Shown here piece after piece: positions 875 through 43,797 of a DNA stretch of 64,000 nt. A model generated the notes under the pieces. It ran no database searches, had not been told where the DNA came from, and saw nothing but the letters and a program-made list of their open reading frames with translations. Origin of the DNA: an uncultured Alphaproteobacteria bacterium (GTDB lineage: Bacteria > Pseudomonadota > Alphaproteobacteria > HIMB59 > GCA-002718135). Within the stretch, counting starts at the first letter, position 1. Each line of letters opens with the position of its first letter. Made by a program: the position numbers and the translations under genes. The stretch is taken from contig CACGZD010000001.1 of the NCBI GenBank assembly GCA_902577425.1, positions 638,414-702,413 of the forward strand. Direction: 5' to 3'.

Positions 875-2338
875 ATGTTAAAATTTGTTAATTTAAATCA
901 GGAAAACCCTCAAAAATCTAATTCAGATAAACGCTTAAAAAATTTCAATGAGATTTATGCTAGATTTTCTAAAGAGAAAGCAGAAAGTCAATCCTCTAGA
1001 TGTTCTCAATGTGGAATTCCTTATTGCCAGATACATTGTCCCCTCCAAAATAATATACCAGATTGGTTACAATTAACTGCAGAAAATAGATTACAAGAAG
1101 CATTTGAGATTTCTAGTGCTACAAATAATATGCCTGAAGTTTGTGGAAGAATTTGTCCTCAAGATAGATTATGTGAAGGTAATTGTGTCATTGAACAATC
1201 CGGTCATGGATCAGTAACTATTGGATCTATCGAAAAACATATTACTGATGTTGCCTGGGAAAAAGGATGGATAGACAAAATTAATGTTATTAATGAAAAA
1301 GAACAATCGGTAGGTATAATAGGATCAGGTCCTGCTGGATTAGCTGCTGGTGAAGAGCTTAGAAAAAAAGGATATCAAGTTACTATTTACGATCGTTATG
1401 ATAGACCGGGAGGTTTACTCATTTATGGAATACCTAATTTTAAATTAGAGAAAGAAATTGTTATTAGAAGAACGAACCGTTTAAGTGAAAGTGGTATCAA
1501 CTTTGAAATGAATTGTGAAATTGGAACTTCTACTTCATTTGAAAAAATTCAAAAGAAACATGAAGCGATATTAATTGCTACTGGAGTATACAAATCTCGT
1601 GAAATTAATTTAAATCATAATAATTCAAATAATGTTGTTCCAGCATTAGAGTATTTAGTTTCTAGTAACAGAAAAGGATTAAAAGATAATGTTAAAGATT
1701 TTGATAGTGGCAGATTAAATGCTCAAAATAAAAATGTAGTAGTTATTGGTGGTGGTGATACGGCTATGGATTGTGTTAGAACGGCTGTTCGTCAAGGCGC
1801 TAAATCAGTTAAATGCTTATACCGTAGAGATCAAAAAAATATGCCTGGATCTCAACGTGAAGTTGAGAATGCTATAGAAGAGGGTATAGATTTCCAATGG
1901 CTTACTTTACCAGCTGAATACATTGGTTCAGATTTAATTAATAAGTTAAAAATAATTAAAATGACATTAGGCTCTCCAGATGAATCAGGAAGAAGAAAAC
2001 CTGAACCGATTCCGGGTTCAGAAATAAACCTTGATGTTGATTTAATTATTGAGGCTCTTGGTTTTGAACCTGAAAATATTCCAAATATGTTTGATAAACC
2101 TGAGCTCGAAATTACTAAATGGGGTACTATTAAAATTAACTATAAAAATATGATGACTAATTTAAGCGGTGTTTTTGCTGCTGGAGATATTGTTAGAGGA
2201 GCAAGTTTAGTTGTTTGGGGAATTAAGGATGGCAGGGATGCAGCAACAAATATACACAATTATATTCAAGAAAAAAATAAAGCTAACTTAGAGAGTGTGC
2301 TTATAAAACAGGATTTCAGAGAAAATGCAGAAGCTTAA
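875..2338 (+). CDS. gltD: Glutamate synthase small (beta) subunit
   Basis: RCSQCGIPYCQIHCP and CGRICPQDRLCEGNC Fe-S motifs, GSGPAGL and GGGDTAMDC dinucleotide motifs; directly upstream of gltB. Confidence 0.97.
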   Translation: MLKFVNLNQENPQKSNSDKRLKNFNEIYARFSKEKAESQSSRCSQCGIPYCQIHCPLQNNIPDWLQLTAENRLQEAFEISSATNNMPEVCGRICPQDRLCEGNCVIEQSGHGSVTIGSIEKHITDVAWEKGWIDKINVINEKEQSVGIIGSGPAGLAAGEELRKKGYQVTIYDRYDRPGGLLIYGIPNFKLEKEIVIRRTNRLSESGINFEMNCEIGTSTSFEKIQKKHEAILIATGVYKSREINLNHNNSNNVVPALEYLVSSNRKGLKDNVKDFDSGRLNAQNKNVVVIGGGDTAMDCVRTAVRQGAKSVKCLYRRDQKNMPGSQREVENAIEEGIDFQWLTLPAEYIGSDLINKLKIIKMTLGSPDESGRRKPEPIPGSEINLDVDLIIEALGFEPENIPNMFDKPELEITKWGTIKINYKNMMTNLSGVFAAGDIVRGASLVVWGIKDGRDAATNIHNYIQEKNKANLESVLIKQDFRENAEA

Positions 2339-5300
2339 GAAAAACAAAGATTATCTAAAAAATAAAAAAAAACTTATTCAAAATCATGTTTATTCTGAAA
2401 ATGATGAGCACTCTTCATGTGGAGTAGGATTAATTGCTTCAATTTCTGGGTTGCCTTCAAGAAAAATTGTAGAGATGGGTGTTCAGGCATTAAAAGTTTT
2501 ATATCATCGCGGCGCTGTCGATGCTGATGGCAAAACAGGAGATGGCGCAGGAATTCAGCTTGGAATACCTAAAGATTTTTTTAAAGAAAAAATTAATCGC
2601 TCAGGACATAAACTAAATAATCTTCCATTTGCTGTAGGAATGATTTTTTTGCCTCGTACTAATTTTGAAGCACAAGAAAAGGCACGTATTATTATTGAGT
2701 CTGAAATTATTAAAGAAGGTTTTAAAATTTTTGGTTGGAGACATGTTCCTATTAATACTAAAATTATTGGAGAAAAAGCGAAGGCATCACTTCCTGAAAT
2801 TGAGCAGATATTAATTGGAAACGAAATTTTTAAAAATGAACTTGAATTTGATGATAAACTTTATTTAATTCGAAAACGAATAGAAAAAAAAATAAATAGT
2901 TCAAATATTAATGATTTTTATATTTGTTCATTATCATGCCAGTCAATTATTTATAAAGGTATGTTTCTAGCTGAACAGCTTTCAAATTTTTATCCAGATA
3001 TTCAGGATAAAAGATTTATTTCAAATTTTGCAGTCTACCATCAAAGGTATTCGACTAATACTTTTCCTACGTGGTCTTTAGCTCAACCTTTTAGAGTGAT
3101 TGCGCATAATGGTGAAATTAATACTCTAAAAGGAAACAAAAACTGGATGGAAGCACATGAACCCAGAATGTTTCATGCGAGTTATGATAAAGATATAGAT
3201 GACTTAAAGCCAATTATTGATAGAGCAGCTTCTGACTCTGCAGCTCTAGATTCTACTATAGAGCTTCTTGTTAGAACAAAAAGAAGCTTGCCCATGGCAA
3301 AGTTAATGACGATACCTGAAGCATTTGCACATAGAAGAGATTTTCCAAAAAAATTAAAAGATTTATATACCTACGCAAATGCAGTTATGGAATCTTGGGA
3401 TGGCCCAGCTGCTATTTGTGGATGCCATGATCAATGGGCAATTGCTGGAATGGATAGAAATGGTTTAAGGCCTCTAAGATATACATTAACAAATGACTTT
3501 CTTATTGCTGGTTCAGAAACAGGTATGGTTGAAATTGATGAGGCAGAAATTCTCGAAAGAGGTCGTGTAGGTCCAGGCCAAATGATAGCAGTAAATTTTA
3601 AAGAAGGTAAATTTTATAAAGATAAAGAAATAAAAAATAAACTTTCTCAATCTAGACCTTTTGGAGAATGGATTAAAAAAATTAAACATATTGATAAATT
3701 AGTTCAGTCCGTTGATGAAGAATTTAGAGATATTCAAACTTCAGATTTAAGAAGAAGAATGACTTCTTTTGGTTGGACTTCAGAGGATATGGAAATAATT
3801 CTTCATCCAATGATTGCATCACAAAAAGAGGCAGTTGGTTCCATGGGTGATGATACTCCTATTGCTGTTTTATCAGATAATTATAGAGGACTTCATCATT
3901 TTTTTAGACAAAATTTTAGTCAAGTCACAAACCCCCCAATTGATAGTTTGAGAGAAAGAGTTGTTATGAGTCTTAGGACAAGAATAGGCAATTTAAGTAA
4001 TATTCTTGATGAAGATCAATCACAATGTGATCATCTGCAATTAAATTCTCCAGTACTGTCCATAAATCAATTTAAAACTTTACGTCAGTATATGAAAGAT
4101 AAAGTTAAGATTATTGATACAACTATGGATATCCAACAAGAAAATTATCATTTTAAAAAAGAATTAGATAGAATTAATAAAGAAGCTGAAGAAGCTGTAC
4201 GTTCTGGCTATGTACACATTATATTAACTGACAAATCTTTAAGTAAATCTCGAGTAGCTCTACCTATGATTTTGGTTACTAGTTCTGTACATCATTATTT
4301 AATTAAAAAAAGATTAAGAACATTTATTTCATTAAATGTTCAATCTGCAGAATGTTTAGATGTTCATTATTTTGCTGTTTTAATAGGTGTAGGTGCTACT
4401 AGTATCAATGCGTATATGGCTCAACAAGCTATTGCTGAAAGGCATAAGAAAAAATTATTTGGTCAACTTACTTATGAAGAATGTGTAGAAAGATACATTC
4501 AATCTGTAAACAATGGATTACTCAAAATTATGAGCAAAATGGGAATCTCAGTTGTTAGTTCATATAGAGGAGGATGTAATTTTGAAGCAATTGGCTTAAG
4601 CAGAAATCTTATGAGCGAATATTTTCCTTCTATGAGCTCTAAAATATCAGGTATGGGCCTAAAAGGTTTAGAACAAAAATCTTTGTTTGCACATAACAAA
4701 GCATATTCAGATGATGTTATTAATTTACCCATAGGGGGCTTTTATAGATACCGCAAAGATGGAGAAAAACATTCTTTTGAAGGTACTGCAATTCATATTT
4801 TGCAAACAGCAGTAGGAACTAATAATTATTCTTTGTATAAAAAATATTCAAAACAAATTAATGAAAATTATCCTATTAATTTAAGAGATCTTGTTGATTT
4901 CAAATCAGATAAAGATTCTATTAATAATAAATCTGTAAATAATACTTATGAAATAAGAAAACGTTTAGTTGCACCAGGAATTTCCCTTGGTGCCTTAAGT
5001 CCTGAAGCGCACGAAACAATAGCTATTGCCATGAATCGTATAGGAGCAAAATCTGATTCAGGAGAAGGGGGAGAAGATCCTGAAAGATTTATTCTTAGAA
5101 GTAATGGAGATAATCCATCTTCAAAAATTAAACAAATAGCAAGTGGAAGATTTGGTGTAACTGCAGAATATTTAAACAGTTGTAATGAAATTGAAATAAA
5201 AATTGCTCAAGGGGCTAAACCAGGAGAAGGAGGACAACTTCCAGGTGAAAAAGTTACTCCTTTGATTGCAAAATTAAGACATTCAACAGAGGGTGTAACA

Positions 5301-6845
5301 TTAATAAGCCCTCCTCCTCATCATGATATCTATTCAATAGAAGATCTTGCGCAATTAATATATGATTTAAAACAGATTAATCCTAAAGCTAAAGTATGCG
5401 TTAAGCTTGTAGCTCAATCAGGTATAGGTACAGTTGCTGCAGGTGTTGCAAAAGCTAAAGCTGATGTAATTTTAATCTCTGGACATAATGGAGGAACAGG
5501 AGCAAGTCCTCAAAGTAGTATTAAATACGCTGGTTTACCATGGGAAATAGGATTAAGCGAAGTTCATCAAGTGCTTTCTCTAAATAATTTAAGAGATAAA
5601 GTTATTTTAAGAACAGATGGAGGTTTAAAAACTGGAAGAGATATAGTTATAGCAGCTATGTTGGGAGCAGAAGAGTATGGAATAGGTACTGCAAGTCTAG
5701 TTGCTATGGGTTGTATTATGGTAAGACAATGTCATTCTAATACTTGCCCTGTCGGTGTTTGTTCTCAAAATGAAAAGTTAAGAGAGAAGTTTACTGGCAC
5801 CCCTGAAAAAGTTGTAAACCTATTTACTTTCATAGCTGAAGAAACAAAGGAAATTCTTAATTCTTTAGGATATAATAAATTAGATGAAATTGTGGGCAGA
5901 TCAGATTTATTATATCAAATAAATAGAGGTAGTTCTTTTTTAGATGATTTAGATTTAAATCCAATTTTATCACAAATAGAATCAGATATTGGGGAGTATT
6001 CTTATAAAATAGAAAATAGAAATGAAGTTGATGCTAGTTTAGACAATAAAATTATTAAGGATGCAGAATCATTATTTAAAGATAAACAAAAAATTCAACT
6101 TACTTATAATATAAAAAATACTGATAGGGCATTAGGTACCAGATTTTCTTCAGAAGTTACTACAAAAATTGGAACTGACATTTTGAATGATGATCATGTG
6201 AATATAAAATTGATTGGAACTGCAGGTCAATCATTAGGTGCATTTTTATGTAAGGGAATTACTCTTTCTGTTTCAGGAGATGCTAATGACTATGTTGGAA
6301 AAGGACTTTCTGGAGGTAAAATTATTTTGAAACCAAAAAATAGTTCAAAATTAGACACAAAAGATAACGTTATTATAGGAAATACAATTTTATATGGTGC
6401 CACTAATGGCAGTTTATATGCTTCGGGCATTGCAGGAGATAGATTTTGTGTTAGAAATTCAGGAGCTCATGCAATTGTAGAAGGCTGTGGTGATAATGGG
6501 TGTGAGTATATGACTGGGGGCAGCGCTATAATATTAGGCTCAGTTGGCAATAATTTTGCTGCAGGAATGACGGGAGGTATCGCTTTTGTTTATGATAAAG
6601 AAGGCACCTTACCTATGAGAATCAATTTAGGCGATGTAATTTATCAACAGCAAATGACAGAGTATTGGGAAAATTTCTTACATTCTAAAATTATAGAATT
6701 TTATAAAATTACTAATTCTCAAAATGCAAAAAATATAATTGATAACTGGGAAAAAGAAAAATATCTTTTCTGGCAAATATGTCCAAAAGAAATGTTAACA
6801 AAATTTGAAAATCCAATTTTACTAGAAGATGAAAAAATAGCTTAG
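2325..6845 (+). CDS. gltB: Glutamate synthase large (alpha) subunit
   Basis: 1506 aa. CGVG Ntn-amidotransferase start, HQRYSTNT, KIAQGAKPGEGGQLPG, CHSNTCPVGVC 3Fe-4S motif and C-terminal GXGXG repeats. Confidence 0.98.
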   Translation: MQKLKKNKDYLKNKKKLIQNHVYSENDEHSSCGVGLIASISGLPSRKIVEMGVQALKVLYHRGAVDADGKTGDGAGIQLGIPKDFFKEKINRSGHKLNNLPFAVGMIFLPRTNFEAQEKARIIIESEIIKEGFKIFGWRHVPINTKIIGEKAKASLPEIEQILIGNEIFKNELEFDDKLYLIRKRIEKKINSSNINDFYICSLSCQSIIYKGMFLAEQLSNFYPDIQDKRFISNFAVYHQRYSTNTFPTWSLAQPFRVIAHNGEINTLKGNKNWMEAHEPRMFHASYDKDIDDLKPIIDRAASDSAALDSTIELLVRTKRSLPMAKLMTIPEAFAHRRDFPKKLKDLYTYANAVMESWDGPAAICGCHDQWAIAGMDRNGLRPLRYTLTNDFLIAGSETGMVEIDEAEILERGRVGPGQMIAVNFKEGKFYKDKEIKNKLSQSRPFGEWIKKIKHIDKLVQSVDEEFRDIQTSDLRRRMTSFGWTSEDMEIILHPMIASQKEAVGSMGDDTPIAVLSDNYRGLHHFFRQNFSQVTNPPIDSLRERVVMSLRTRIGNLSNILDEDQSQCDHLQLNSPVLSINQFKTLRQYMKDKVKIIDTTMDIQQENYHFKKELDRINKEAEEAVRSGYVHIILTDKSLSKSRVALPMILVTSSVHHYLIKKRLRTFISLNVQSAECLDVHYFAVLIGVGATSINAYMAQQAIAERHKKKLFGQLTYEECVERYIQSVNNGLLKIMSKMGISVVSSYRGGCNFEAIGLSRNLMSEYFPSMSSKISGMGLKGLEQKSLFAHNKAYSDDVINLPIGGFYRYRKDGEKHSFEGTAIHILQTAVGTNNYSLYKKYSKQINENYPINLRDLVDFKSDKDSINNKSVNNTYEIRKRLVAPGISLGALSPEAHETIAIAMNRIGAKSDSGEGGEDPERFILRSNGDNPSSKIKQIASGRFGVTAEYLNSCNEIEIKIAQGAKPGEGGQLPGEKVTPLIAKLRHSTEGVTLISPPPHHDIYSIEDLAQLIYDLKQINPKAKVCVKLVAQSGIGTVAAGVAKAKADVILISGHNGGTGASPQSSIKYAGLPWEIGLSEVHQVLSLNNLRDKVILRTDGGLKTGRDIVIAAMLGAEEYGIGTASLVAMGCIMVRQCHSNTCPVGVCSQNEKLREKFTGTPEKVVNLFTFIAEETKEILNSLGYNKLDEIVGRSDLLYQINRGSSFLDDLDLNPILSQIESDIGEYSYKIENRNEVDASLDNKIIKDAESLFKDKQKIQLTYNIKNTDRALGTRFSSEVTTKIGTDILNDDHVNIKLIGTAGQSLGAFLCKGITLSVSGDANDYVGKGLSGGKIILKPKNSSKLDTKDNVIIGNTILYGATNGSLYASGIAGDRFCVRNSGAHAIVEGCGDNGCEYMTGGSAIILGSVGNNFAAGMTGGIAFVYDKEGTLPMRINLGDVIYQQQMTEYWENFLHSKIIEFYKITNSQNAKNIIDNWEKEKYLFWQICPKEMLTKFENPILLEDEKIA

Positions 6846-13176: not shown

Positions 13177-15579
13177 ATGAAATTTACCCTAAGTTGGCTT
13201 AAAGAGCATTTAGAAACAAAAGCTAAAATTGATATCATTACAGATACTTTAACAAATATTGGTTTAGAAGTTGAAAATATTGAAGATAAAGAAAATGATT
13301 ATAAGCATTTTACTATAGCTAAAGTTATTAGTGCTGACAAACATCCTAATGCTGATAGGTTAAAAGTTTGTAAAGTTGAAACTTCCAAAGGAAATGTTCA
13401 AGTTGTATGTGGAGCTCCAAACGCTAAGTCAGGTATGTTTGGCGTATTTGCTCCTAGTGATACTTATATACCTGGCACTAACATTAATCTTAAAAAATCT
13501 GAAATAAGAGGTGTAGAATCAAATGGAATGTTGCTTTCAGAGCGAGAATTAGGAATATCAGATGAACATGATGGCATAATAGAGTTAACAGGAAAACATA
13601 AAATAGGTGATCCCATTGCTTCTATATATGGATTTGATGATCCTGTAATAGAGATAAATTTAACACCGAATAGATCAGATTGCTTATCAGTTAGAGGAAT
13701 AGCAAGAGATCTGGCAGCTGCAGGTTTAGGTACTTTAAAAGAATTAAAAATTAAAAAGATAAAAGGCAGTTTTAAAAGTAATATAAAGTGGGTAAGGAAA
13801 TTTAAAAAAGATGAAGAGTATTTATGTCCTGGTGTAGCAGGTCGATTATTTAAAAATGTTAAAAATAGTCAAAGTCCTGAATGGTTAAAAAGAAGATTAA
13901 CACTTATTGGATTAAGACCTATCAGTACCTTAGTAGATATCACTAATTATGTAACTTTTGATCTTGGTCGTCCACTCCATGTTTATGATGCTAGTAAATT
14001 AAGTGGCAACTTAGTAATGCGTAAATCTGAAAATAAAGAAAAATGCAAAACCTTAGATGATAAGGAATATATTTTATCTGATGAAATGGTTGTTATAAGT
14101 GATGATAAATCTTTGCACGGTATAGGAGGAGTAATGGGTGGCTTAAATAGTGGTTGCTCAGAAAATACAACTGATGTTTTTTTAGAAGTAGCTCTTTTTG
14201 ATCCAATTAGTGTAACCAAAACTGGTAGAAAATTAAATTTACAGAGTGATGCACGGTACCGATTTGAAAGAGGTTTAGATTATACTTCAATTGATTGGGG
14301 AGTAGATATAGCAACACAAATGATTCTTGATTTATGTGGAGGTGAAACTAGTGAAATTGTTGCTGACAAATTAGATGGTCCAAAATCAAAAACTATTAAT
14401 TTTAATACTACACTTACTAAAACATATGGTGGTATTAATATTTCAGAAGATCAACAAAAAATAATTTTAGAAAAATTAGGTTTTTTAGTTAGTGGTAAAG
14501 ATAAAAAAATTTTTAAAATTACTATACCATCTTTTCGACCTGATATTGCATCATCAGCAGATATAGTTGAAGAAATACTTAGAATTTATGGATTTGATAA
14601 AATTGAACCCACTTCCTTACAAAAAGATGAAGGCAATACAGATGAAATTCTAAGTCCTAAATTAAAAAGTTTTTTTAAATCTAGACGATTAATAGCTAAC
14701 AGAGGTTACTTAGAAACTGTCACTTGGTCTTTTATGGATTCAAAAAATGCTGATTTTTTAAATAATAATTCATCTATAAAAATTAAAAATCCTATAAGTG
14801 TTGAGATGGATGCAATGCGACCTTCTACATTTCCTAACTTATTGAATTCAATAAATTTCAATATTTCAAAATTATTTACTGAAGGCAAAGTATTTGAGGT
14901 AGGTCCAAATTTTCATGGATTAGAAGAAGAAGATCAACAAATGGTTGCAACTGGTATTCATTATGGTTTTGATAGTTCAATTTCTTGGAACAAAAAACAA
15001 AGATCTGTTGATATTTATGATGTGAAAAGTGATGTTTTTTATATTTTAGATCAATTAAATGTTCCAGTAGAGAATTTGCAATATGATAAAATAGATAATA
15101 ATATTTATCATCCAGGTAAATCTACAAAACTGAGATTAGGCAGAAATACAATTGCGACCTTTGGAGAAATAAGTCCTTTATTATTAAATAGATTTAATAT
15201 TAAAACTTTAGTGTGTGGCTTTGAAATATATTTAGATGAACTTGATCAATTTCAAACGAAAAAAACTTCAACTAAAAAAAGTTTTGATAATAATTCTTTA
15301 CAGAAAATTGAAAGAGATTTTGCTTTTCTTTTTCCTTTAAAAATTCAAGCTATAGATATAATTAATGCTGTTAGAAAAATTGATAAAAAAATAATTAAAA
15401 ATGTCATTATCTTTGATGTTTTTGAAGGAAAGAATTTATCTGATAGTAAAAAAAGTATAGCATTCAAGGTTATAATGCAGCCTCAAGAAAAGACATTCAC
15501 AGATGCTGAAATTGAAAACCTATCTACTAATATTATTGATCTTATATCAAAATCATTTGATGGTGAATTAAGACAATAA
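13177..15579 (+). CDS. pheT: Phenylalanine--tRNA ligase beta subunit
   Basis: [34 protein letters not shown], and a C-terminal anticodon-binding domain. Confidence 0.98.
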
Positions 15580-17381
15580 TGACAGAATTAAAAAATTTAA
15601 GAAATTTTTCTATAGTTGCGCATATAGATCATGGCAAGTCTACCTTGGCTGATAGATTAATTCAATTTTGTGGAGGATTATCAGATAGAGAAATGAAAGA
15701 ACAAGTATTGGATTCTATGGAACTTGAGAGAGAGCGAGGTATAACTATAAAAGCTCAAACTGTTAGACTAAAATATCAAGGAGATGATGGTAATAATTAT
15801 ATTTTAAATCTAATGGATACTCCAGGACACGTTGATTTTTCTTATGAAGTATCAAGATCTCTAGCTGCGTGTGAAGGCTCAATATTAATTGTAGATTCTA
15901 CACAAGGAGTAGAAGCCCAAACATTAGCAAATGCTTATCAAGCTATTAATAATGATCATGAAATTGTTCCAGTTTTGAATAAGATTGACTTACCATCTTC
16001 TGAACCCGATAGAATTAAAGATCAAATAGAAGAAATTCTTGGAATAGACTCTCAAGAAGCTGCTTTAGTATCTGCTAAAACAGGTGACGGGATAAAAGAT
16101 TTGTTAGAAAAAATAATAAAGAAACTACCATCACCTTCAGGAAATGAAAGCGACCCATTGAAATGTATGTTGGTAGATAGTTGGTATGATAGTTATCTAG
16201 GAGTTGTAGTTTTAGTAAGAGTCATTGATGGCAAGTTAAGTAAAAATCAAAAAATTCGTTTCATGGCTGCTGGGGTAACTCACACTATAGATAGAGTAGG
16301 AATATTTTCACCTAAAGCAGAAGAAGTAGATTCTTTAGGTCCTGGAGAAATTGGTTTTATTAACTCTGGAATCAAAAGTGTTTCAGATTGTAAAGTTGGA
16401 GATACAATTACTGAGGAGAAAAATCCTGCTAAAGATCCACTACCTGGTTTTAAACCTTCGCAGCCAGTTGTTTTTTGTGGCATGTTTCCTGTAGACTCAG
16501 ATGATTATGAACATTTAAGAGATAGTATGGTGAAATTAGCATTAAATGATTCTAGTTTTTCTTATGAGCCAGAAGTTAGTCCTGCTCTTGGTTATGGCTT
16601 TAGGTGTGGTTTTCTCGGTTTGCTTCATCTAGAGATAATTCGGGACAGATTTGAAATAGAGTTTAATTTAGAATTAGTTACTACGGCACCTTCTGTTGTT
16701 TATAAAGTTAATATGAATGATGGAAGTGTAATTGATTTGCATAACCCTACAGATATGCCTGATCCAGTAAAAATAAACAACATCGAAGAGCCATGGATCA
16801 AAGCTACAATTTTGGTTCCTGATGAATATCTTGGACCAGTATTAGAATTATGCACTTCAAAAAGAGGAATTCAAAAAAATCTTAGTTATGTTGGGACTAG
16901 AGCATTGGTTGAATATAAATTACCTCTCAATGAGGTAGTTTTTGATTTTTATGATCGTCTTAAATCCATAACAAAAGGTTATGCTAGTTTTGACTATGAA
17001 ATGACAGGTTATGAAGTAAATGATTTGGTAAAAGTTTCTATTTTGATTAATGGAGAGCCTGTAGATGCCCTGTCATTAATTGTACATCGAGATAGATCAC
17101 AATCAAGAGGCAGGACTCTTTGTTCTAGATTAAAAGATTTAATTCCAAGACAACAATTTAAAGTTGCAATTCAAGCTGCCATAGGTGGTAAAATTATTGC
17201 GCGTGAGACGGTTGCTTCATTTAGAAAAGATGTTACGCAAAAATTATATGGCGGTGATGTTACAAGAAAGAATAAATTATTAGATAAACAAAAAAAAGGA
17301 AAAAAGAGAATGAAGCAATTTGGTAAAGTAGATATTCCTCAAAATGCTTTTTTAAATGCTCTTAAAATGAATGAAAACTAG
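15579..17381 (+). CDS. lepA: Elongation factor 4 (LepA)
   Basis: [39 protein letters not shown] and KCYGGD-like LYGGDVTRK; normal C-terminus. Confidence 0.98.
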
Positions 17382-17382
17382 T

Positions 17383-17427
17383 CTACGGATCTGGAGGTTA
17401 GGAGTTCGACTCTTCTCGGGCGCGCCA
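17383..17427 (+). pseudogene. 3' half of tRNA-Arg(ACG) (att-like fragment 1); 5' half absent
   Basis: CTACGGA anticodon loop, TCTGG, T-arm AGGAG-TTCGACT-CTTCT and CGGGCGC-GCCA. It starts 1 bp after the lepA stop; there is no D-arm or 5' acceptor strand upstream. Confidence 0.9.
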
Positions 17428-17473
17428 AGTAAAGTGGGAAATTTATCTACTGTTCCGTTTTGAAAATTCCTAT

Positions 17474-17495
17474 TCGGAACACTTACGGACCACTT
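17474..17495. repeat. Tandem 11-bp arm-type repeat (tRNA-distal side of Arg fragment 1)
   Basis: TCGGAACACTTACGGACCACTT is 17/22 identical to the Ser-module motif TCGGCGCACATACGGCGCACTT. An inverted half (TGTTCCG) lies 17 bp upstream. Confidence 0.72.
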
Positions 17496-17557
17496 CGTAT
17501 TCAAAAATTACTTTTTACGTATCAACTTTTCTTACTATTGGTGCTAAGACAGTTGTA

Positions 17558-18718
17558 ATGAAAAAAGAAACTGGCTACTGGTTGTTTAATTGTAATCCTG
17601 CAATATGGGATATTAAATCAAGGCTTCAAAGTAAAATTACAAAGGAAGATTGGGGAATTCCTAATAATAGAGTTAAACAATTTAAAAAAGGACAACTAGG
17701 ATTTATCAGAGTCGCGTTAGACACAAGACCTAAGAGACTTGTAAATAAAAAACTATTATCTGGTTTTTATGCTTTAGTAGAAATTGTAGACGAACCTTTT
17801 TATGGAAAAACAAAAAATCCTAAATTGTTTTTTAAGCCTACCAAATATACCCAAAAAGTTAAAAATGTTGAATTAAAAACACATTGGAGAGTTCCTATAA
17901 ATATTACAGAAAGTTTTTTAAACTCACCAATACTTATTTCAGATTTAAAAAATACTGAATTTAATTTTGATAAAGGAGTATTTCAACCAGGACAAGGAAT
18001 TTCAGTTAGACCAATAGAAAGAAAATCTTTTTTTGAACTTCTTAAAATGACTGGCAAAAAAGATAAATTATGGATTGAAGACATTAAGGAGGCGTTTAAT
18101 AGTCTTGGAAGAGAAGCGTCTTTAAAGGAAATTTATTCTGAAGTAAAAAAAATAAGAAAAAATATAAATCTCAATCAAGACTGGCAAGCAATTGTTCGAA
18201 GAGAAATAGGAGAAAATTCTTCAGATACAAAATATTGGAAAAAAAAATCTGATTTATTTTATAACGTATATGGACTTGGCGAAGGGTATTGGGGTTTAAG
18301 AAGTTTCGCAAATGATCCCAAAATAATTAAAAATTACAAAAAACAATTTGAAAAAAAAGTAAATAACAATTTAAAACTATCTGCTGCAGAACTTAAAAAA
18401 AGAGCAAACAAAAGTTTAAAAGTTAAAGTAAAAAATACTCAAACCAAATATTTTAATAGAGATGATTATGTTGAGGCTTATGTAAAAAAAATTGCAAAAG
18501 GTAAATGTGATTTATGTGAAAAAAATGCGCCTTTTAAAAAGAAAAAAACAAATGAGCCGTACCTAGAGTGTCATCATGTTAAGTGGCTTTCTAAAGGGGG
18601 AAAAGATATTATTGAAAATGCAGTAGCTCTTTGCCCCAATTGTCATAGAAAAATGCACTCATTAAGCCTTAACAAAGATATTAAAAAACTATTTGAAAAA
18701 ATAAATACTCGGCAATAA
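17558..18718 (+). CDS. EVE-domain + winged-helix + McrA-like HNH endonuclease (putative modification-dependent, type IV restriction enzyme)
   Basis: N-terminal YWLFNCNPAIWD...WGI...KGQLGF (EVE-like), central WIEDIKEAFNSLGREASLKEIY...GYWGLR (wHTH-like), and C-terminal CDLC...EPYLECHHVKWLSKGGKDIIENAVALCPNCHRKMH (McrA-type HNH). Confidence 0.8.
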   Translation: MKKETGYWLFNCNPAIWDIKSRLQSKITKEDWGIPNNRVKQFKKGQLGFIRVALDTRPKRLVNKKLLSGFYALVEIVDEPFYGKTKNPKLFFKPTKYTQKVKNVELKTHWRVPINITESFLNSPILISDLKNTEFNFDKGVFQPGQGISVRPIERKSFFELLKMTGKKDKLWIEDIKEAFNSLGREASLKEIYSEVKKIRKNINLNQDWQAIVRREIGENSSDTKYWKKKSDLFYNVYGLGEGYWGLRSFANDPKIIKNYKKQFEKKVNNNLKLSAAELKKRANKSLKVKVKNTQTKYFNRDDYVEAYVKKIAKGKCDLCEKNAPFKKKKTNEPYLECHHVKWLSKGGKDIIENAVALCPNCHRKMHSLSLNKDIKKLFEKINTRQ

Positions 18719-18729
18719 TTTTTTATATC

Positions 18730-18753
18730 CCAGTGCAAATTCGTAACACTTCA
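18730..18753. repeat. Orphan arm-type repeat between the HNH and YdjM-like genes
   Basis: GTGCAAATTCGTAACACTTCA (18733-53) is 18/21 identical to 19985-20005; no tRNA fragment follows it. Confidence 0.65.
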
Positions 18754-18754
18754 C

Positions 18755-19957
18755 TCAGAAATTCAAAGCAAAAATTAGATAGGGTGTGTCATAAGCTGGG
18801 CAATTAGTTACAATTTCAATTGATTTTTTTGCAAGTTTGTACTTACTAACTTCCCCATTACACATGCTTTTATTATCTTCTTTGTGATCAATTATTTTGA
18901 TTTTATTCTCTATAAAAGAAAAAACTGAATAAGTATTATGTCTAATATGAGCTGAACCTTGAGGTTGAGAGAAAGTAGAAATTAAATAATTATTTTCATT
19001 AAGTTTTAATAAAATTTCAGTATCCAATTGCTCTATCTCATTTTGCCAATCAATCTCATATATTGATTTATTAACAATATTATAAAGTTTAGACCTATCA
19101 AAGGATTTTAAGTCAATTTCTTGGTTATTGCTAAAGCAACAATCATAATTGTGAACCATATATGTTATAATTTTAGGATCAAAATTATTAATAGTTATGT
19201 TTTGGTTTGGACCAATCGTAGAATAATCTTTAAATTTTTGATAATCGTTAAATAATGTTACTCCATAATAAACGAAAAACAATACTATTAATAAAATTGA
19301 TAAATAAAAAATAAATTTAAAAAATTTGTAAACACCAGAAAAAAAACTATTTACTTTACGCTTTGCTATTTGAAGATTTTGAGTTGATTTTTCAGTGACA
19401 CTACTCAACTTTGGGAAATAGCTAAATATTTTTTTTTCACCAAAATAATCTACTGTTAATACTGCTATTGGTATCATTCGTATATCTTCTCCTTTAAGAA
19501 AGTATAAAAGAATACATATTCCCGCAGTAAGGTAGAAGTGATATGGATAAAACGAAAAACTATTTTCTTTAATTATTTTTAAGCAAAAATAACCACACGC
19601 TATTACATTTGCAAATATCCAAATAGGACTAAGCGGACCTATCCAACCAATAAATGGAACGCTGATTAAAGCATAACCTTTCCATGATTTGGGAAACAGA
19701 TCTGCAGATAGGTGGACCATAAATGCGAAATATATTGCAGCAATAATTAAAGGATATTGTTTTGAAGAGTATTTTTTTGAATAATAATCAATTAAAAAAG
19801 GTATAAAAATGCTGTGTGTTACAATTGAGCGATGAAGTAATAATTTTCCTGTAGCTAAATCCCAATCAGGTATACTTACAGTTACTAGTGCAATAAAAAA
19901 GAAAAATATACTTGAGCCAGTTTTTTTACCAAAGTTCTTTTCTAAATACTCAATCAT
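18755..19957 (-). CDS. YdjM-like membrane metal-dependent hydrolase with a C-terminal soluble domain
   Basis: IPDWD, HRSIVTHS and HLSADL motifs in a multi-TM N-terminal half, then a basic linker, one TM helix and a hydrophilic C-terminus. Confidence 0.65.
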   Translation of the reverse strand: MIEYLEKNFGKKTGSSIFFFFIALVTVSIPDWDLATGKLLLHRSIVTHSIFIPFLIDYYSKKYSSKQYPLIIAAIYFAFMVHLSADLFPKSWKGYALISVPFIGWIGPLSPIWIFANVIACGYFCLKIIKENSFSFYPYHFYLTAGICILLYFLKGEDIRMIPIAVLTVDYFGEKKIFSYFPKLSSVTEKSTQNLQIAKRKVNSFFSGVYKFFKFIFYLSILLIVLFFVYYGVTLFNDYQKFKDYSTIGPNQNITINNFDPKIITYMVHNYDCCFSNNQEIDLKSFDRSKLYNIVNKSIYEIDWQNEIEQLDTEILLKLNENNYLISTFSQPQGSAHIRHNTYSVFSFIENKIKIIDHKEDNKSMCNGEVSKYKLAKKSIEIVTNCPAYDTPYLIFALNF

Positions 19958-19981
19958 TTTATAAACTTATAACTAAACTTT

Positions 19982-20005
19982 GTGGTGCAAATTTGGAACA
20001 CTACA
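19982..20005. repeat. Tandem 11-bp arm-type repeat (upstream of Arg fragment 2)
   Basis: TGGTGCAAATT-TGGAACACTAC shows an 11-bp period. The second CAC (19999) is 86 bp before the anticodon loop at 20085. Confidence 0.68.
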
Positions 20006-20084
20006 GAATCATTTTTTTTCACTTAACGAATGATTTTTCCCGTAATTCCGTATATGTAATACAATCTGGTGCACGGGACACGGA

Positions 20085-20129
20085 CTACGGATCTGGAGGT
20101 TAGGAATTCGACTCTTCTCGGGCGCGCCA
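20085..20129 (+). pseudogene. 3' half of tRNA-Arg(ACG) (att-like fragment 2), decaying
   Basis: Same as 17383-17427 except that G53 is changed to A (AGGAA-TTCG), breaking the invariant G53-C61 pair; no 5' half. Confidence 0.9.
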
Positions 20130-20175
20130 TATAAACTGTCAAAAACTTAATTTTAAAAAATTATTAATTAAAAAA

Positions 20176-20197
20176 AAGTGTGCCGTTTGTGCACTTT
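20176..20197. repeat. Arm-type repeat after Arg fragment 2 (largely inverted)
   Basis: The reverse complement of 20176-94 is GTGCACAAACGGCACACTT, 16/19 identical to GCGCACATACGGCGCACTT. The following ~35 bp resemble those after 17495. Confidence 0.68.
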
Positions 20198-20243
20198 CGT
20201 ATTTAGAAATACTATTTTGGATTCAACATTCCTCTTAGAAGAA

Positions 20244-20990
20244 TTATTTTATTTTTTTATTAAAAACCACAGGCATTTTGCCTTTCCACTGAATCCAAAG
20301 GTTAGGTTGTTCAATGCACTCACACATAAAATGAGCGACGTTTGCTCGCGTAGTAGTAAGTCCATTAAAAATAGTTTGAGGAGGTGTCGTTACTACTTCA
20401 TAGTTCGAAATTTCAGCATTAATGAGTCCGTCTGGTCGGACCACTACCCATTCAATAAATTCATTTTCTGAACCAATGTTATCTCTCAAAAAAGCAGCGG
20501 AGGCTTCATTATCATAATGTGGTGGTATGAGGTTGCGTAACAGAGATAAAATAACTTTTTCGCTCGTGGTTACTCTCTCACCAGGATTGCGATTACCTAC
20601 GGTGTTCATTAATAAAAATTTTGTTTTATCTAGAGAATGAGTAGCCTTAATAGCTACACATAGACGTTTGACTGCTTCCAGAACAAGCGTTCTGGGTTTG
20701 CCAAATATTCCTTTAAAACTCATTGTGTGACCTAAGCAGGAAGCCACAGCAGCACAACCTTTTACGGCTTCCAACATTTGTTCGTCACTCAGATCAAGCA
20801 AACTTGCTTTTATGATTTTAAGCTTTGGATTTTCAAGAAGTTCTTGTGGAAATTTATCGAGTGACCGAACAATAATTCGAAGGTTATAGCCGCGGACAAG
20901 AAGCTGTTTTACAAGAGGGAAACCAGTATTTCCTGTGGCTCCAACCACTAAAACTGTTTTAAAATTTGAATTGGTTTTTTCGGTTGTCAT
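20244..20990 (-). CDS. NAD(P)H-binding atypical SDR (BVR-B/flavin reductase-like)
   Basis: VLVVGATGNTG, VASCLG, WVVVRPDGL and TTRANVAHFM motifs. Confidence 0.85.
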   Translation of the reverse strand: MTTEKTNSNFKTVLVVGATGNTGFPLVKQLLVRGYNLRIIVRSLDKFPQELLENPKLKIIKASLLDLSDEQMLEAVKGCAAVASCLGHTMSFKGIFGKPRTLVLEAVKRLCVAIKATHSLDKTKFLLMNTVGNRNPGERVTTSEKVILSLLRNLIPPHYDNEASAAFLRDNIGSENEFIEWVVVRPDGLINAEISNYEVVTTPPQTIFNGLTTTRANVAHFMCECIEQPNLWIQWKGKMPVVFNKKIK

Positions 20991-21006
20991 TTACCGGGCA
21001 TATAGA

Positions 21007-21609
21007 CTAACTCAAATTTATATTAAAACTTATTACAATTCTATCTTCATTTGATCTATTTACATCAACAGAGTGATGTAAGTAGCTAGGAAACAGTACT
21101 AACAAGCCTTCTTCAGGTTTTATTGAAACAATATTAGTATTTAAGTTATTAGGATTGTCTACTTTAGGGTGAAAATAAACTGGTTCACTTCTTGGATCAT
21201 GAAAAACAATATTGCCACAATTTTCAGGGGCTTTAACATAGTAGGCTGCACTTATATAATTGTTACTATGTATATGTCTTGCATTAGTGGCATCATTTCT
21301 ATTTATGATAGACCACATACTGGTAATTTTAACTTTTTGATTTTTTAAATCCCATCCCATATCTACAAGTGTTTCGTTTATGTAAGGGCCAATAGAGTTA
21401 ATATAATCTTTTATATTGTCAGCATTCATATCAAAGTCTTGAGAGTGCCATCCTTTTGAATTAGATTTTTGAACTCCTTTAGGATTTTGAGACTCTAAAC
21501 TTTTTATATATTCTAATATCTTTTTATTAACTTCTTGATGGTTTTTCACTCGTGAAACCCAAACAGGAGTTGAAAAAAAAAGTTTTAATTCTGACACTCT
21601 ATCTGTCAT
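21007..21609 (-). CDS. Putative 2OG-Fe(II) oxygenase, TIGR02466-like
   Basis: GWHS, HIHSNNYISAAYYV, IVFHDPR, GLLVLFPSYLHHSV and RIVISFN motifs. Confidence 0.85.
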   Translation of the reverse strand: MTDRVSELKLFFSTPVWVSRVKNHQEVNKKILEYIKSLESQNPKGVQKSNSKGWHSQDFDMNADNIKDYINSIGPYINETLVDMGWDLKNQKVKITSMWSIINRNDATNARHIHSNNYISAAYYVKAPENCGNIVFHDPRSEPVYFHPKVDNPNNLNTNIVSIKPEEGLLVLFPSYLHHSVDVNRSNEDRIVISFNINLS

Positions 21610-21667: not shown

Positions 21668-23638
21668 TTACTTAGTACTATCAATACAAACAATTGCATA
21701 AGGTAATAATTCCAGTTTAAGAGATCCATTAGCAGTTACGTGTTTTTTAAAGTTTTGAGCACGAAAAGTTTCAGGTGATTTCATTGCTTCCTCAATATTA
21801 CTTTCATTGAGATGTCGAATATTAACTGAACTACCTAAATTTTTTACTGTTAATTGTTGTACTTCTGAAACTAGATTAGCTAAAATAATTCTTATCTGAC
21901 CTTCTTTGTTTATAGCTAATCCATTTATTTTTAAAGGATTGCTTGATGAGGTTGAAATAATCTCTCCATCTGCAAATTCTCCTACATCAGCAAAAACATG
22001 ATAAAGAGGAAAAACAGATTCTTTAAATGAATAAAATTTTTCTGGAATAGGTGAACCATACTGAGTTTCCATTACACCTCGCCATCCTGTTGTTTCATAA
22101 TATGTCAAACTATGAGCCTCACTTTCACATAAATATTTTAAGCTGCCAACTGTCCAGCCTGCACCAAATAGAGACATCTGTCTCACATCTACTTGAGATG
22201 GAAGCTGGTTAGATTTCAATTCTGTTTCAGGAGAAGTAGCAAAGGGATTAAAACGCATTTTTAATGTAATAGGTGAAACCGCAATAAATTTATTATTAGA
22301 AAATTGACGAGCACTTTTTACTGTTTCCGGTTGAGCTGAAAGCGTTTCTATTAGTGAAAGATTATCAAAAGCATGTACCTGCGGATTGATAGAATAAGAT
22401 ACTAAATCCATATCTTCAAAAGAGGCAGTGGAACGATTCAGATCAGTAAATAAAACATTTGTACCAGAACCTATTTTGATATTATGATCATATTTTTGTA
22501 AATATTTTTTAGCTAATAATATCCATTTTTTAGAAGTTGTTATTTCTTCTTTATGGAAAATGAGCCAAGTTAAAATAGGAGGTTTAATCTTTTTTAATAA
22601 TTCAAGAAAAGCCATCAGTTCAGACTCAGCATCATTTGAAAGAAACAACGCTACTTCTAAATTAATTCCTAATTTGTGAGCATCCCTAGATGATTGTTCG
22701 AATTTTGCTTCATAATTAGGATCATATAAATTTAAATTAATTCTTTGATGAGATAGATTTAAAACTTTTAGTCGCTCCAACTCTTTTTCATTGAGTGGAT
22801 AATCATGACTAGCTTCATCCAATCCAATTTTTGGTAGTTTTCGTATTGCTTTTTCTTTTATTAAAAAAGTAAGCTCATCATTAGCTTTAAAAGATTTTAA
22901 TTCATGATCTTGATTTTTTAAAGTTAAAGAAAAGTTTTGAGAAATTTTTGTACCTGCTTTAACTTCTACTGGAGAAGGTTTGCTAAGTGGAGTACCGTAG
23001 GTTTTAAAAGAGGCATCTGTCCAGTTTCGTTGATCTTCCATTTCAAAATTTTCACCTTCAAAACGAACTTCTGCTAGTAAATTTTGTTTTACTTGATAGA
23101 CAAGTGCTCGCATATTAGAAAATGGTTCAACAGGTGAAGGCTTGTCATTAATGATAAGTTGCGGTGCTATAAATTTTGGAAATGTAGTTTGTTCAATTGT
23201 TCCATCCACATGTTCAATTTTACACTCTGTACTGGCATATTCCATTGGATGCAAAATACAAAAACCAATGCGGTTTCGCCAAAATGTGGAGCGCGCTTCA
23301 CCATCCATACTAAAGGTGATAGCACCATTAGCTTTACCAATAATTTTTCCTTGCCAGCAGAAATCAATGTCACTTTGAATATTATTGACAGTATATGTGA
23401 TAATAAAAGAATCATCTTTTATATCCATCTTCACATTTGATAAAACAGGTTTTACAGTGTCCCAATTACGATCACGCACAGCAACATAGATACGACGGAT
23501 TATTTCCTTATCACCATATTTAATATAGCGAAGATCTCCTGCTTCATAAAATAAATTTAATGGTCCAGCTTTAAGGTCTATCTGTTTGGGTAATGATTCA
23601 TCTTTTCCATAATATTGAACGTTTTTAGATAATTTCAT
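21668..23638 (-). CDS. apnL: D-apionate lactonase-like protein
   Basis: AGPL, GDLRYIKYG, VRDRNW, NRIGFCILHP and FEMEDQRNWTDASFKTY match my recollection of the ApnL family; adjacent to the ApsD-like gene. Confidence 0.7.
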   Translation of the reverse strand: MKLSKNVQYYGKDESLPKQIDLKAGPLNLFYEAGDLRYIKYGDKEIIRRIYVAVRDRNWDTVKPVLSNVKMDIKDDSFIITYTVNNIQSDIDFCWQGKIIGKANGAITFSMDGEARSTFWRNRIGFCILHPMEYASTECKIEHVDGTIEQTTFPKFIAPQLIINDKPSPVEPFSNMRALVYQVKQNLLAEVRFEGENFEMEDQRNWTDASFKTYGTPLSKPSPVEVKAGTKISQNFSLTLKNQDHELKSFKANDELTFLIKEKAIRKLPKIGLDEASHDYPLNEKELERLKVLNLSHQRINLNLYDPNYEAKFEQSSRDAHKLGINLEVALFLSNDAESELMAFLELLKKIKPPILTWLIFHKEEITTSKKWILLAKKYLQKYDHNIKIGSGTNVLFTDLNRSTASFEDMDLVSYSINPQVHAFDNLSLIETLSAQPETVKSARQFSNNKFIAVSPITLKMRFNPFATSPETELKSNQLPSQVDVRQMSLFGAGWTVGSLKYLCESEAHSLTYYETTGWRGVMETQYGSPIPEKFYSFKESVFPLYHVFADVGEFADGEIISTSSSNPLKINGLAINKEGQIRIILANLVSEVQQLTVKNLGSSVNIRHLNESNIEEAMKSPETFRAQNFKKHVTANGSLKLELLPYAIVCIDSTK

Positions 23639-23658
23639 TTTTTTGTAACTTTAAGCAT

Positions 23659-24696: not shown

Positions 24697-24744
24697 TTTT
24701 ATTTTATATATAACCTAATCATATTTTTATATTTTCTTATCCAA

Positions 24745-25563
24745 TTATGATTTAGCATCTCCATCTGCAGGATCCAAACTAGTAGCTGGTATCCGATCAC
24801 ATCCAACTTCTTCTAAGGACTGATGCAGAGATCGCATTAATAGTCCACTATCTGGTCCTAAAGCTAACATTCGAAAACCTTGATCACGTCGTTCAGTTAA
24901 ATTTTTAACACTAGTAGATATAACACCACAATGTTTTCCAGCAGCGTTAATTATGTCTTTTAATTCTAATATTTGTTCGGCTACACCAGGACCTTCCCAT
25001 TGTCCTCGATATCCTGCACTTGCTGAGAAATCAGCTGGACCAAAGAAAAATAGATCTATTCCATCTACTTTACACATGTTGGCTACATTAGGAATGGCAT
25101 TGATACTTTCAATCAAAGGTATAACTAGTACATTTTCATTTGCTTCATTAGTATGTTCACTTAAACACTGACCCCATACTGTTGCTCGTTCTCCTCCTAT
25201 TCCTCGTCGTCCTTCAGGTGGATAATGGCAATCACGAACGGCCTCTTCTACTTCTTCTACCTTTTCCATCCAAGGAACTATTATTCCATCAGCTCCAATA
25301 TCAAGAGCACGTTTTGACAAGGAAGTACTTCGTTCAGCAATACGGACAAGAACAACAGTATCACTTCGTAAAGCTGCCCTAATATGGGAATTTATGTCTC
25401 TCCAATCCAAATGACCATGTTCTGCATCAATTACAACCCAATCTAAACCGAGAGAAACGGCCATTTCAGTAATTGACGCTGATTCAAGAGTAACCCATAA
25501 TCCGTATATAGGCTCATTTTTTTTAAGCTTTTGCCTTAGTTTTTGAAGAGCTTTAACTTTCAT
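24745..25563 (-). CDS. HpcH/HpaI class II aldolase
   Basis: DWVVIDAEHG, ALDIGADGIIVP, YPPEGRRG, PLIES and FFGPADFSAS motifs. Confidence 0.9.
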   Translation of the reverse strand: MKVKALQKLRQKLKKNEPIYGLWVTLESASITEMAVSLGLDWVVIDAEHGHLDWRDINSHIRAALRSDTVVLVRIAERSTSLSKRALDIGADGIIVPWMEKVEEVEEAVRDCHYPPEGRRGIGGERATVWGQCLSEHTNEANENVLVIPLIESINAIPNVANMCKVDGIDLFFFGPADFSASAGYRGQWEGPGVAEQILELKDIINAAGKHCGVISTSVKNLTERRDQGFRMLALGPDSGLLMRSLHQSLEEVGCDRIPATSLDPADGDAKS

Positions 25564-25721
25564 TTTTTTTCAATTTATACATTATAGTCATTCTAATTAA
25601 AAACTATTAGCACTTGATAATAATTTTTAATACGATTATCATTCTTTTGATATGACAAATATGAGTATAATTTTATCATATTTATTTATCAAAACAAATT
25701 TTTAATACGTAGGAGGGAATA

Positions 25722-43792: not shown

Positions 43793-43797
43793 TTTTA

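Follow-up and report, generated by a model that had tools for sequence, protein, structure and literature searches.

Why does the 3' half of a tRNA-Arg(ACG) gene stand directly behind the stop codon of the elongation factor gene lepA, with no 5' half in front of it? The question is raised by a stretch of DNA from an uncultured marine alphaproteobacterium of low GC content (~29%), 64,000 nucleotides (nt) long and here called the window (assembly GCA_902577425.1, contig CACGZD010000001.1, positions 638,414 to 702,413, forward strand; all positions below count from its first letter). We suggest that the half tRNA is probably a scar of site-specific recombination and represents neither a lost essential gene nor an assembly error. 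An off-target, integrase-mediated insertion most likely left an orphan attachment site between lepA and its convergent neighbour, followed by tandem accretion of cassettes that lack an integrase. A preliminary description of the locus had proposed either such an off-target integration or the loss of the 5' half.

The half tRNA at the end of lepA

The lepA open reading frame (ORF) encodes 600 amino acids (aa) with the full LepA_C domain and ends in TAG (17379-17381). After one T follow the anticodon loop with its ACG (CTACGGA, 17383-89), the 3' strand of the anticodon stem (TCTGG, 17390-94), the variable loop (AGGTT, 17395-99), the T arm (AGGAG TTCGACT CTTCT, 17400-16), the 3' strand of the acceptor stem (CGGGCGC, 17417-23), the discriminator base (G, 17424) and CCA (17425-27). 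All 45 positions are identical to the 3' half of the intact tRNA-Arg(ACG) gene, as it occurs at 58 marine metagenome loci. A second copy of this core begins 2702 nt downstream and matches the first at 44/45 positions; the single difference is a T-stem G->A change at 20106. No chance match to the core was obtained in 100 shuffles (0/100).

Directly 5' of the first core lies lepA coding sequence. ARAGORN and Rfam called no complete tRNA-Arg at 17383-17427 or 20085-20129, and the sole tRNA that they detected in the window is tRNA-Ser(GGA). No Arg 5' half was found in the window; the search for the 5' strand GCGCCCGTAGCTCA returned one chance match with three mismatches. The junction of lepA with the 3' half, and the lack of a 5' half here or elsewhere in the window, had both been noted in the preliminary description and are confirmed. 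It had also spoken of an array of Arg sites: the repeated core exists, but with two members only, and the larger array of the window belongs to tRNA-Ser.

The half tRNA lies on the coding strand directly after the stop and is conserved in the species, and it could serve as a functional RNA element of the lepA transcript, for instance a 3' untranslated region structure, a processing signal or a terminator. We regard this as highly improbable. The fold of 17340-17440 is weaker than that of shuffled sequences (z = +1.6; 190/200 shuffles fold at least as well) and no terminator-like site was found there, and on these two grounds the RNA-structure reading of the interval was rejected; Rfam gave no match either. 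The core copy at 20085 has no upstream gene on its strand, and two metagenome contigs (L008 and L009; L numbers denote loci and contigs, X numbers sequencing runs) retain just 14-15 nt of the core.

The junction in natural populations

An identical LepA is encoded on nine independent ENA marine metagenome contigs from different projects, TARA among them. At the lepA end all nine (9/9) read ...AACTAG|TCTACGGATCTGGAG; their lepA DNA is 97-98% identical to that of the window, so that the nine stand for a single species-like population. The junction is also contained in Logan contigs from four other runs, which span 17340-17396. The junction is therefore neither a chance product nor a misassembly.

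If lepA were in truth followed by an intact tRNA-Arg, the assemblies would have to be chimeric at a repeated tRNA fragment. The 45-nt core is indeed a high-copy metagenome repeat (up to ~1000x depth in its bin), and three contigs do stop exactly after ...CTGGAG. Such an artefact is nevertheless scarcely conceivable: the identical junction recurs in assemblies from different projects, and five of them run into unique DNA past the core or scar (L002-L004, L008, L009; L001 extends just 10 nt past it). The preliminary description had named a misassembly as the outcome that would overturn it; no contig has an Arg 5' half after lepA. The nearest genomes in the scanned collection are GORG single-cell genomes labelled uncultured Alphaproteobacteria, and the organism is presumably of the SAR11 type.

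The uninterrupted site in relatives

In five of five related loci (L221-L225), lepA and a TIGR02466 gene stand tail to tail with their stops 1 nt apart and no tRNA sequence between them. Stop, spacer and stop read TGA-T-TTA in L225, TAA-T-TTA in L221-L223 and TAG-A-TTA in L224. The TIGR02466 proteins are 73-74% (L221-L224) or 81% (L225) identical to that of the window, which is in line with the neighbouring proteins (PheT 68-70%, PheS 79%, LepA 89-90%) and therefore fits orthology. The LepA C-terminus of L225 (...ALKMNEN*) is identical to the window's over the 58 residues held by the contig, and the C-termini of LepA and of the TIGR02466 protein are unaltered in the window. Since the stops of the relatives are 1 nt apart, the 3.6 kb of window 17382-21006 are inserted DNA that sits exactly between the lepA and TIGR02466 stops. 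More distant single-amplified genomes have tRNA-Ser or, in most, the end of a minus-strand gene after lepA, and never tRNA-Arg. Comparison of the lepA flank with relatives, which the preliminary description had suggested, thus revealed an empty site with a 1-nt spacer and no tRNA, and no tRNA gene appears ever to have stood after lepA.

One Logan contig of run X3 (2.7x) joins the lepA end to TIGR02466 (17380->21022) via AGATTTTTTAAGCGTAAC, with no base derived from a tRNA, and may represent the empty site of a closely related strain or species. In the distant relatives from the genome-contig scan, PheT is 59% identical and tRNA-Ser follows directly after lepA. An 11 kb insertion between lepA and tRNA-Ser, considered from these genomes, was dropped, TIGR02466 being the native neighbour of lepA.

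The second explanation of the preliminary description holds that a native tRNA-Arg(ACG) stood after lepA and lost its 5' half by deletion or rearrangement with a breakpoint in the anticodon loop. Integrase-driven rearrangements at tRNA sites are reportedly described in the tycheposon paper, and locus L165 links the right-hand neighbourhood of the window to a real tRNA-Arg in another lineage. We consider this loss improbable and unsupported by the relatives, none of which has tRNA-Arg after lepA. The five related loci and the distant single-amplified genomes argue against it, as do the 58 loci with an intact tRNA-Arg, where lepA is upstream in 0/58. The attR-type junction at TIGR02466 in same-species contigs (see below) is not predicted by a simple deletion. 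A rearrangement model built on L165 was rejected, because TIGR02466, the native partner of lepA, intervenes between the Arg cores and the L165-like block and empty sites exist; the synteny is still unexplained.

Attachment-site arms, population variants and the right junction

P' and P arms frame the genes of a 2.7 kb unit, here cassette A: ~130 nt behind the first core and ~105 nt ahead of the second, each homologous to the flanks of Arg cores in many metagenome loci. Direct repeats equal to the tRNA 3' part bound cassette A in the manner of an attL/attR pair; neither end rebuilds an intact tRNA, the left one abutting the lepA stop. Compared with the stretches that follow Arg cores elsewhere, the P' arm of cassette A, core included, is 82% identical over 168 nt in L125 and 77% identical in both L152 and L112. 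Its P arm with the core is 81-95% identical to L121, L094, L091, L160, L118 and L165, and 88% to L226. In L152, the tandem word of this P' arm sits directly before a tyrosine integrase gene (L152 word TTCGGAACACTTACGGATCAC versus TTCGGAACACTTACGGACCAC at window 17478-17500; common part TTCGGAACACTTACGGA(T/C)CAC). The arm behind the second core, P' arm B, follows intact tRNA-Arg genes in L113, L123, L143 and L156 at 87-90% identity.

The population is polymorphic for presence or absence of cassette A precisely at the repeats. L001 and L003 have a single core and run from lepA|core straight into the flank found at window 20130+, with cassette A missing (L003, 97.5% over 320 nt), while L002 and L004 have other DNA after the core. 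The window arrangement itself is matched by L210 at 99% identity. According to Logan data, the depth of cassette A is ~3x, versus 50-80x for 20120-21000, and it jumps at 19980 from ~3x to 65-200x (runs X1-X4). The accretion of cassettes at a new hotspot, as proposed in the preliminary description, agrees with a site where the 2.7 kb cassette can be present or absent and where the core can be followed by other DNA. The hotspot had also been called portable, and nothing in the data shows portability.

The right end of the original insertion can be read from other contigs. L008 and L009 read lepA-T-CTACGGATCTGGAG-CTTGGGTA(A/T)CGGA-CTA and continue into TIGR02466, leaving a 27-nt scar; the scar joint (17396->21005) was seen in two Logan runs. 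L226, whose TIGR02466 is 97% identical, has the order full P arm, CTACGGATCTGGAG, TTTGGGTAACGGA, TTA (the TIGR02466 stop), and its P arm, core and scar start match window 20007-20104 at 88%. The 13 nt (C/T)TTGGGTAACGGA of the scar match the core-proximal end of the P arm (CTTGGGTGAGAGA in L226, CACGGGACACGGA in the window). Judged by its letters, the 27-nt scar appears to be what would be left if the core had joined, through its TCTGGAG, with the TCTGG(A/T)G close to the end of the P arm and the DNA between them had been deleted. Scar and L226 junction together therefore point to an original product lepA-T-[core-P'...cargo...P arm-ACGGA]-(C/T)TA-TIGR02466.

The scar joint has a depth of 13x, and in run X1 lepA unitigs outside shared high-depth stretches, which we read as lineage-specific, have ~10-16x. 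The most abundant contig with the NAD-binding gene (window 20221-21019, runs X1-X3) has 78x in X1; it leaves the window after 21019 and continues CACTTCAACCAATTACC... The main location of this NAD-binding unit, which takes 13 nt of the TIGR02466 end along, seems to be elsewhere.

Anatomy of the 3.6 kb insertion

The features of the region are collected in Table 1. The protein with EVE and HNH domains is a candidate type IV (modification-dependent) restriction enzyme. In L125, the P' arm type of cassette A is followed by an ORF that resembles, by eye, the N-terminus of a McrB-type restriction protein. The second cargo gene of cassette A was considered as an integrase and ruled out, having no Pfam, PHROG or PADLOC match and looking like a membrane protein.

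Table 1. Coordinates of the insertion after lepA, its flanking genes and the tRNA-Ser array
Feature	Position	Strand	Description
lepA (elongation factor 4)	15579..17381	+	complete; Pfam GTP_EFTU and LepA_C; left chromosomal flank of the insertion
single T	17382		equivalent of the 1-nt spacer between lepA and TIGR02466 stops in uninterrupted relatives
orphan attL core, tRNA-Arg(ACG) 3' half	17383..17427	+	45/45 match to intact gene
P' arm of cassette A	17428..17557	+	inverted repeat GTTCCG...CGGAAC, tandem word GGAACACTTACGGACCAC
cassette A cargo 1, EVE-domain and HNH nuclease (386 aa)	17558..18718	+	Pfam EVE 2e-8, HNH 3e-9; PADLOC mREase_IV 9.6e-22
cassette A cargo 2, predicted membrane protein (400 aa)	18755..19957	-	no family match
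P arm of cassette A	19958..20084	+	conserved part 19982-20084; ends ...AATCTGGTGCACGGGACACGGA at the core
second Arg core	20085..20129	+	attR of cassette A and older attL of the NAD-binding unit
P' arm B	20130..20243	+	TATAAACTGTCAAAAACTTAATTT...GTGTGCCGTTTGTGCAC
NAD(P)-binding (NmrA-like) gene, older cargo	20244..20990	-	Pfam NAD_binding_10
16-nt remnant	20991..21006		TTACCGGGCATATAGA; between NAD-binding start codon and TIGR02466 stop
TIGR02466 / 2OG-Fe(II) oxygenase gene	21007..21609	-	Pfam 2OG-FeII_Oxy_5; right chromosomal flank
tRNA-Ser(GGA) array	28706-28795; 30644-30715, 42841-42912, 43878-43949		intact gene first; partial copies hold the last 72 nt

No PF00589 integrase was found in the 51 window ORFs scanned, a set that leaves lepA-upstream ORFs such as 2325..6845 outside, and tblastn of the L134 integrase against the window gave no match. 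Further Arg-type arms elsewhere in the window were searched for and none were found. Exact-protein look-ups of the EVE-HNH, TIGR02466 and 656-aa proteins returned no match. The NAD-binding gene is missing from L008/L009 and from the empty sites L221-L225. The 16-nt remnant behind it occupies the place of CTTGGGTAACGGA in L008/L009 and of TTTGGGTAACGGA in L226; the similarity is weak (~7/13), and the remnant may be a decayed P-arm end.

Genuine tRNA-Arg loci and their integrases

The JGI metagenome scan, which required a pairing 5' anticodon stem before the core, gave 80 loci with 82 matches. At 58 loci the tRNA-Arg(ACG) is intact and ARAGORN-confirmed (GCGCCCGTAGCTCAATTGGATAGAGCG-CCAGA-CTACGGA-...), and 19/82 matches have no 5' half, being attR-type sites behind P arms or orphan sites. 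The preliminary description had expected an intact tRNA-Arg(ACG) copy elsewhere. At the population level it exists, with an identical 3' half; for this genome itself we infer a functional gene elsewhere. The sequencing runs that matched were all metagenomes, with at most 46% of the sequence words, and no source or pure-culture run was among them.

In L134, a PF00589 tyrosine integrase (E = 2e-25) starts ~140 nt downstream of the Arg core; the PF00589 integrase of the related full elements has 332 aa. Homologs with 50-67% identity occupy the equivalent position in L135, L152, L097, L136, L112 and L124, and in L097, L136 and L112 the integrase stands behind an intact tRNA-Arg. A large homologous protein was detected in L132, L134 and L135, the L135 copy giving DUF5906/VapE-like matches (primase-helicase). 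The integrases of the L134/L152 type are candidates for the enzymes that move Arg cassettes. Two IMG/VR pattern scans and blastn versus GenBank phages detected no phage or viral contig with the Arg core. The pelagiphage HTVC120P is reported to use tRNA-Arg with 5'-end complementation and is therefore not an obvious match as the source of the core.

The P' arms of L094, L097, L105, L134, L135 and L147 and window 17440-17500 are built alike: an inverted repeat comes first, and behind it stands a 7-mer repeated in tandem with 4 nt as spacer. The arm words differ among these loci (GGAACAC, GTTGCAC, TGTCAC, GTATCAC, ACAACAC), which suggests several putative integrase specificities on one tRNA-Arg core.

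The 7.4 kb of L118 (1-7385) contain at least six Arg-core/arm sites (~11, 750, 2292, 3850, 4560 and 5480) that part single-gene units, a dense array of integrase-less cassettes. A second orphan scar, built in the same way, was detected in L168 (1906-1970), reading CCAGA-CTACGGA-TCTGG-AGGTTAGGAGTTC + AACCTAATA + CACGGGACACGGA-CTA. The genes on its two sides, in hemB-hisI-ribA context, are cupin-like and, in convergent orientation, methyltransferase-like (both by eye), and reading through the core lengthens the cupin ORF by PDYGSGG*. L165 (114-9281) encodes homologs of the 656-aa protein, a GFO/IDH/MocA oxidoreductase, an HpcH aldolase and a sugar ABC transporter with 76-93% aa identity and in the same order; a cassette with GNAT-like (by eye) and NUDIX genes and a partial Arg core lie between its tRNA-Arg and those homologs. 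The NUDIX gene of the window (48448-48825) has homologs (~78% translated, 128 codons) that are the first cargo after the tRNA-Arg att in L123, L151, L157, L163 and L165; its place in the window is the low-GC hypervariable region, where no Arg arm is close to it.

Proposed origin of the orphan attachment site

In related metagenome loci, a family of elements targets the single tRNA-Arg(ACG) gene by a tyrosine integrase. The attP of these elements consists of the 45-nt core (anticodon loop through CCA), flanked by a P arm of ~100 nt and a P' arm of ~110 nt. At the founding event, an element would have recombined with the 1-nt spacer between lepA and TIGR02466 instead of the tRNA gene, attP ...ACGGA|CTA|CGGATCTGG... 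meeting the site ...AACTAGT|(C/T)TA|ACT... The products would be attL, lepA-TAG-T-CTACGGATCTGG...CCA-P', and attR, P arm...ACGGA-(C/T)TA-TIGR02466. As the element would have met no tRNA gene on the chromosome, its 3' half would never have been joined to a 5' half.

The breakpoints on the element side agree with this proposal. The left one is the first base of the anticodon loop and the right one is ...ACGGA|(C/T)TA in L008, L009 and L226, so both junctions lie at the core/overlap boundary, and relatives have a core-free uninterrupted site, as expected of a secondary site. K. P. Williams's studies of integration-site sublocations would reportedly place the crossover region of such tRNA sites where this loop starts. 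The off-target integration of the preliminary description is thus supported by the empty sites and by the attR-type junctions. Its description of the lepA end as core-like holds weakly: CTAGT matches CCAGA at 3/5 positions and the microhomology is at most CTA.

As presence and absence of the cassette show, the orphan core has stayed in use, presumably as an attachment site. The NAD-binding unit may have been left by the founding element or by a later one, its own P arm having since decayed. Cassette A would then have entered the lepA-side core, duplicating 45 bp and pushing the older unit inward. The Logan depths of cassette A (~3x), the scar (13x) and lepA (~10-16x) fit this order. Any movement of cassettes would require an integrase acting in trans, none having been found in the window.

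Several observations weigh against this proposal. The window has no recognisable attR of its own, the place being taken by the 16 nt with ~7/13 matches, and the evidence for attR comes from other contigs. No integrase was found in the window, neither integration nor excision was observed, and the action in trans is deduced. The pre-insertion site resembles a real core weakly, as given above, and the equivalent bases of L225 are TTGATTTA. The closest clean empty site, L225, belongs to another lineage (~80% nt identity in TIGR02466 to 89% at the lepA end), and the near-identical variant without the tRNA piece is the single 2.7x Logan contig. In a 1-nt spacer, selection alone would retain just the insertions that lie exactly between the stops, so that the position need not reflect the choice of a target by an integrase. 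The abundant NAD-binding contig (78x versus ~10-16x for lepA), which diverges after 21019, is left unexplained by the model, which also does not predict the arrangement in L165, where a genuine tRNA-Arg array has homologs of window 21668-27631 on its right.

Some of these points would equally fit an entry without an integrase. DNA imported from a tRNA-Arg island would then have recombined illegitimately or with the help of homology, and the position in the anticodon loop would be a coincidence or the end of a transferred fragment. The window has no detected integrase, the empty site resembles the core weakly, selection in the spacer would filter any mechanism to the exact position, and the other continuation of the abundant NAD-binding contig past 21019 hints that flanking DNA co-travels. 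We consider such an entry unlikely, since the core/overlap boundary is where both element-side breakpoints fall, the L168 scar, an independent one, has the right breakpoint ...CACGGGACACGGA|CTA again, and the later 2.7 kb insertion is bounded by 45-bp core repeats with complete P and P' arms. The integrase-mediated off-target insertion is therefore preferred.

A broader idea, which we put forward tentatively, is an integron-like capture: integrases of transient satellites or phages would shuffle small integrase-less cassettes in trans between the tRNA-Arg gene and orphan cores, and would found heritable hotspots throughout a population. It is possible, if doubtful, that SAR11-type cells, mostly without resident integrases, share cassettes that consist of the 45-bp core and family-specific P/P' arm words, with orphan cores at lepA/TIGR02466 and in L168. 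The likeness to integrons does not extend to integron cassettes proper, as no integrase was found in the window and the sites are tRNA-derived cores with long arms, not attC palindromes.

Other features of the window

The partial copies of tRNA-Ser (Table 1) delimit cassettes of 1.9, 12.2 and 1.0 kb and have conserved arms ~95 nt upstream and ~70 nt downstream, with the tandem word GTCGCACATAnGTCGCAC. The contents are small unknown proteins including a MORN-repeat protein, a metabolic block (sugar/ABC/SnoaL) and a 254-aa unknown protein. The window thus has, besides the Arg sites, a canonical cassette array anchored at a tRNA gene, and the arm words of the two systems are of similar construction.

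After the cassette arrays, window 43000-53000 resembles a hypervariable region of O-chain/lipopolysaccharide type, with nucleotidyl-transferase, epimerase/dehydratase, glycosyltransferase and PhyH genes at a GC content of 21-27%. A bacterial small signal recognition particle RNA (Rfam RF00169, 53 bits) was detected at 61512-61606, just upstream of dnaX.

Comparison with known systems

Islands and satellites that target tRNA genes (P4-like, Islander-type, tycheposons, VEIMEs) share several properties with this locus. The core corresponds to a tRNA 3' part that begins with the anticodon loop and ends with CCA, direct core repeats bound each unit, and units accumulate in tandem with the older ones pushed inward. 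The related full elements L134, L152 and L097 have the integrase just downstream of attL, and some of the related full elements carry a primase-helicase of DUF5906/VapE type. Tandem integration at tRNA sites, pushing older elements inward, has been described for marine elements (bioRxiv 10.1101/2020.12.28.424599), and the large protein of L132/L134/L135 recalls satellite-like elements reported from Pelagibacter (PMC9618062). The locus differs in its leftmost site, which is an orphan core in a 1-nt spacer between convergent protein genes, and in its units, which have no integrase or replication genes; the tycheposon-type recombinase and hallmark replication genes are likewise absent from them.

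Secondary (pseudo-attB) attachment sites are classical, with the secondary sites of phage lambda as an example. Integration of lambda and of Salmonella genomic island 1 (SGI1) at such sites resembles our case in the non-canonical locus, the element-side junctions at the crossover region, the poor similarity to attB and the tandem arraying. The orphan site described here is different in that it occurs in every examined contig with identical LepA, in a natural free-living population, and has been reused by several cassettes in a streamlined genome without a resident integrase. For SGI1, a secondary chromosomal site with tandem integration is reported (PMC2297512).

The cis-mobilizable elements (CIMEs) are att-flanked DNA without recombination genes of their own, known from the families of integrative and conjugative elements of Streptococcus thermophilus. 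Cassette A (17428-20084) appears similar, with complete P/P' arms and core repeats but no integrase, and its mobility would need an integrase in trans; its arms are homologous to those of integrase-bearing elements. Unlike for CIMEs, no conjugative partner is evident, and the partners look like small phage-satellite-like elements.

In SAR11 islands, which border tRNA genes, partial tRNA repeats mark the insertion of cassettes; the islands are integrase-poor, with no canonical mobile elements and one island-associated integrase (PMC11796062). The tRNA-Ser array of the window is exactly of this type, whereas the Arg site has partial repeats alone, no full tRNA and a non-tRNA locus.

The natural population data illustrate how a new cassette hotspot can be founded in one of the most streamlined and abundant ocean bacteria: one off-target insertion would have landed in a 1-nt spacer, and the site was later reused by integrase-less defence and metabolic cassettes. 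The lesson for annotators is that an active island border may be marked by an orphan tRNA fragment at a place without a tRNA gene. The locus also sharpens the question of which enzyme moves SAR11 cassettes without resident integrases, the L134/L152-type integrases being candidates. Compared with these systems, the marking of cassettes by partial tRNAs, tandem accretion and secondary attachment sites are already known; new is the instance, an orphan tRNA-derived core between two housekeeping genes, present in every examined contig with identical LepA and reused by integrase-less cassettes.

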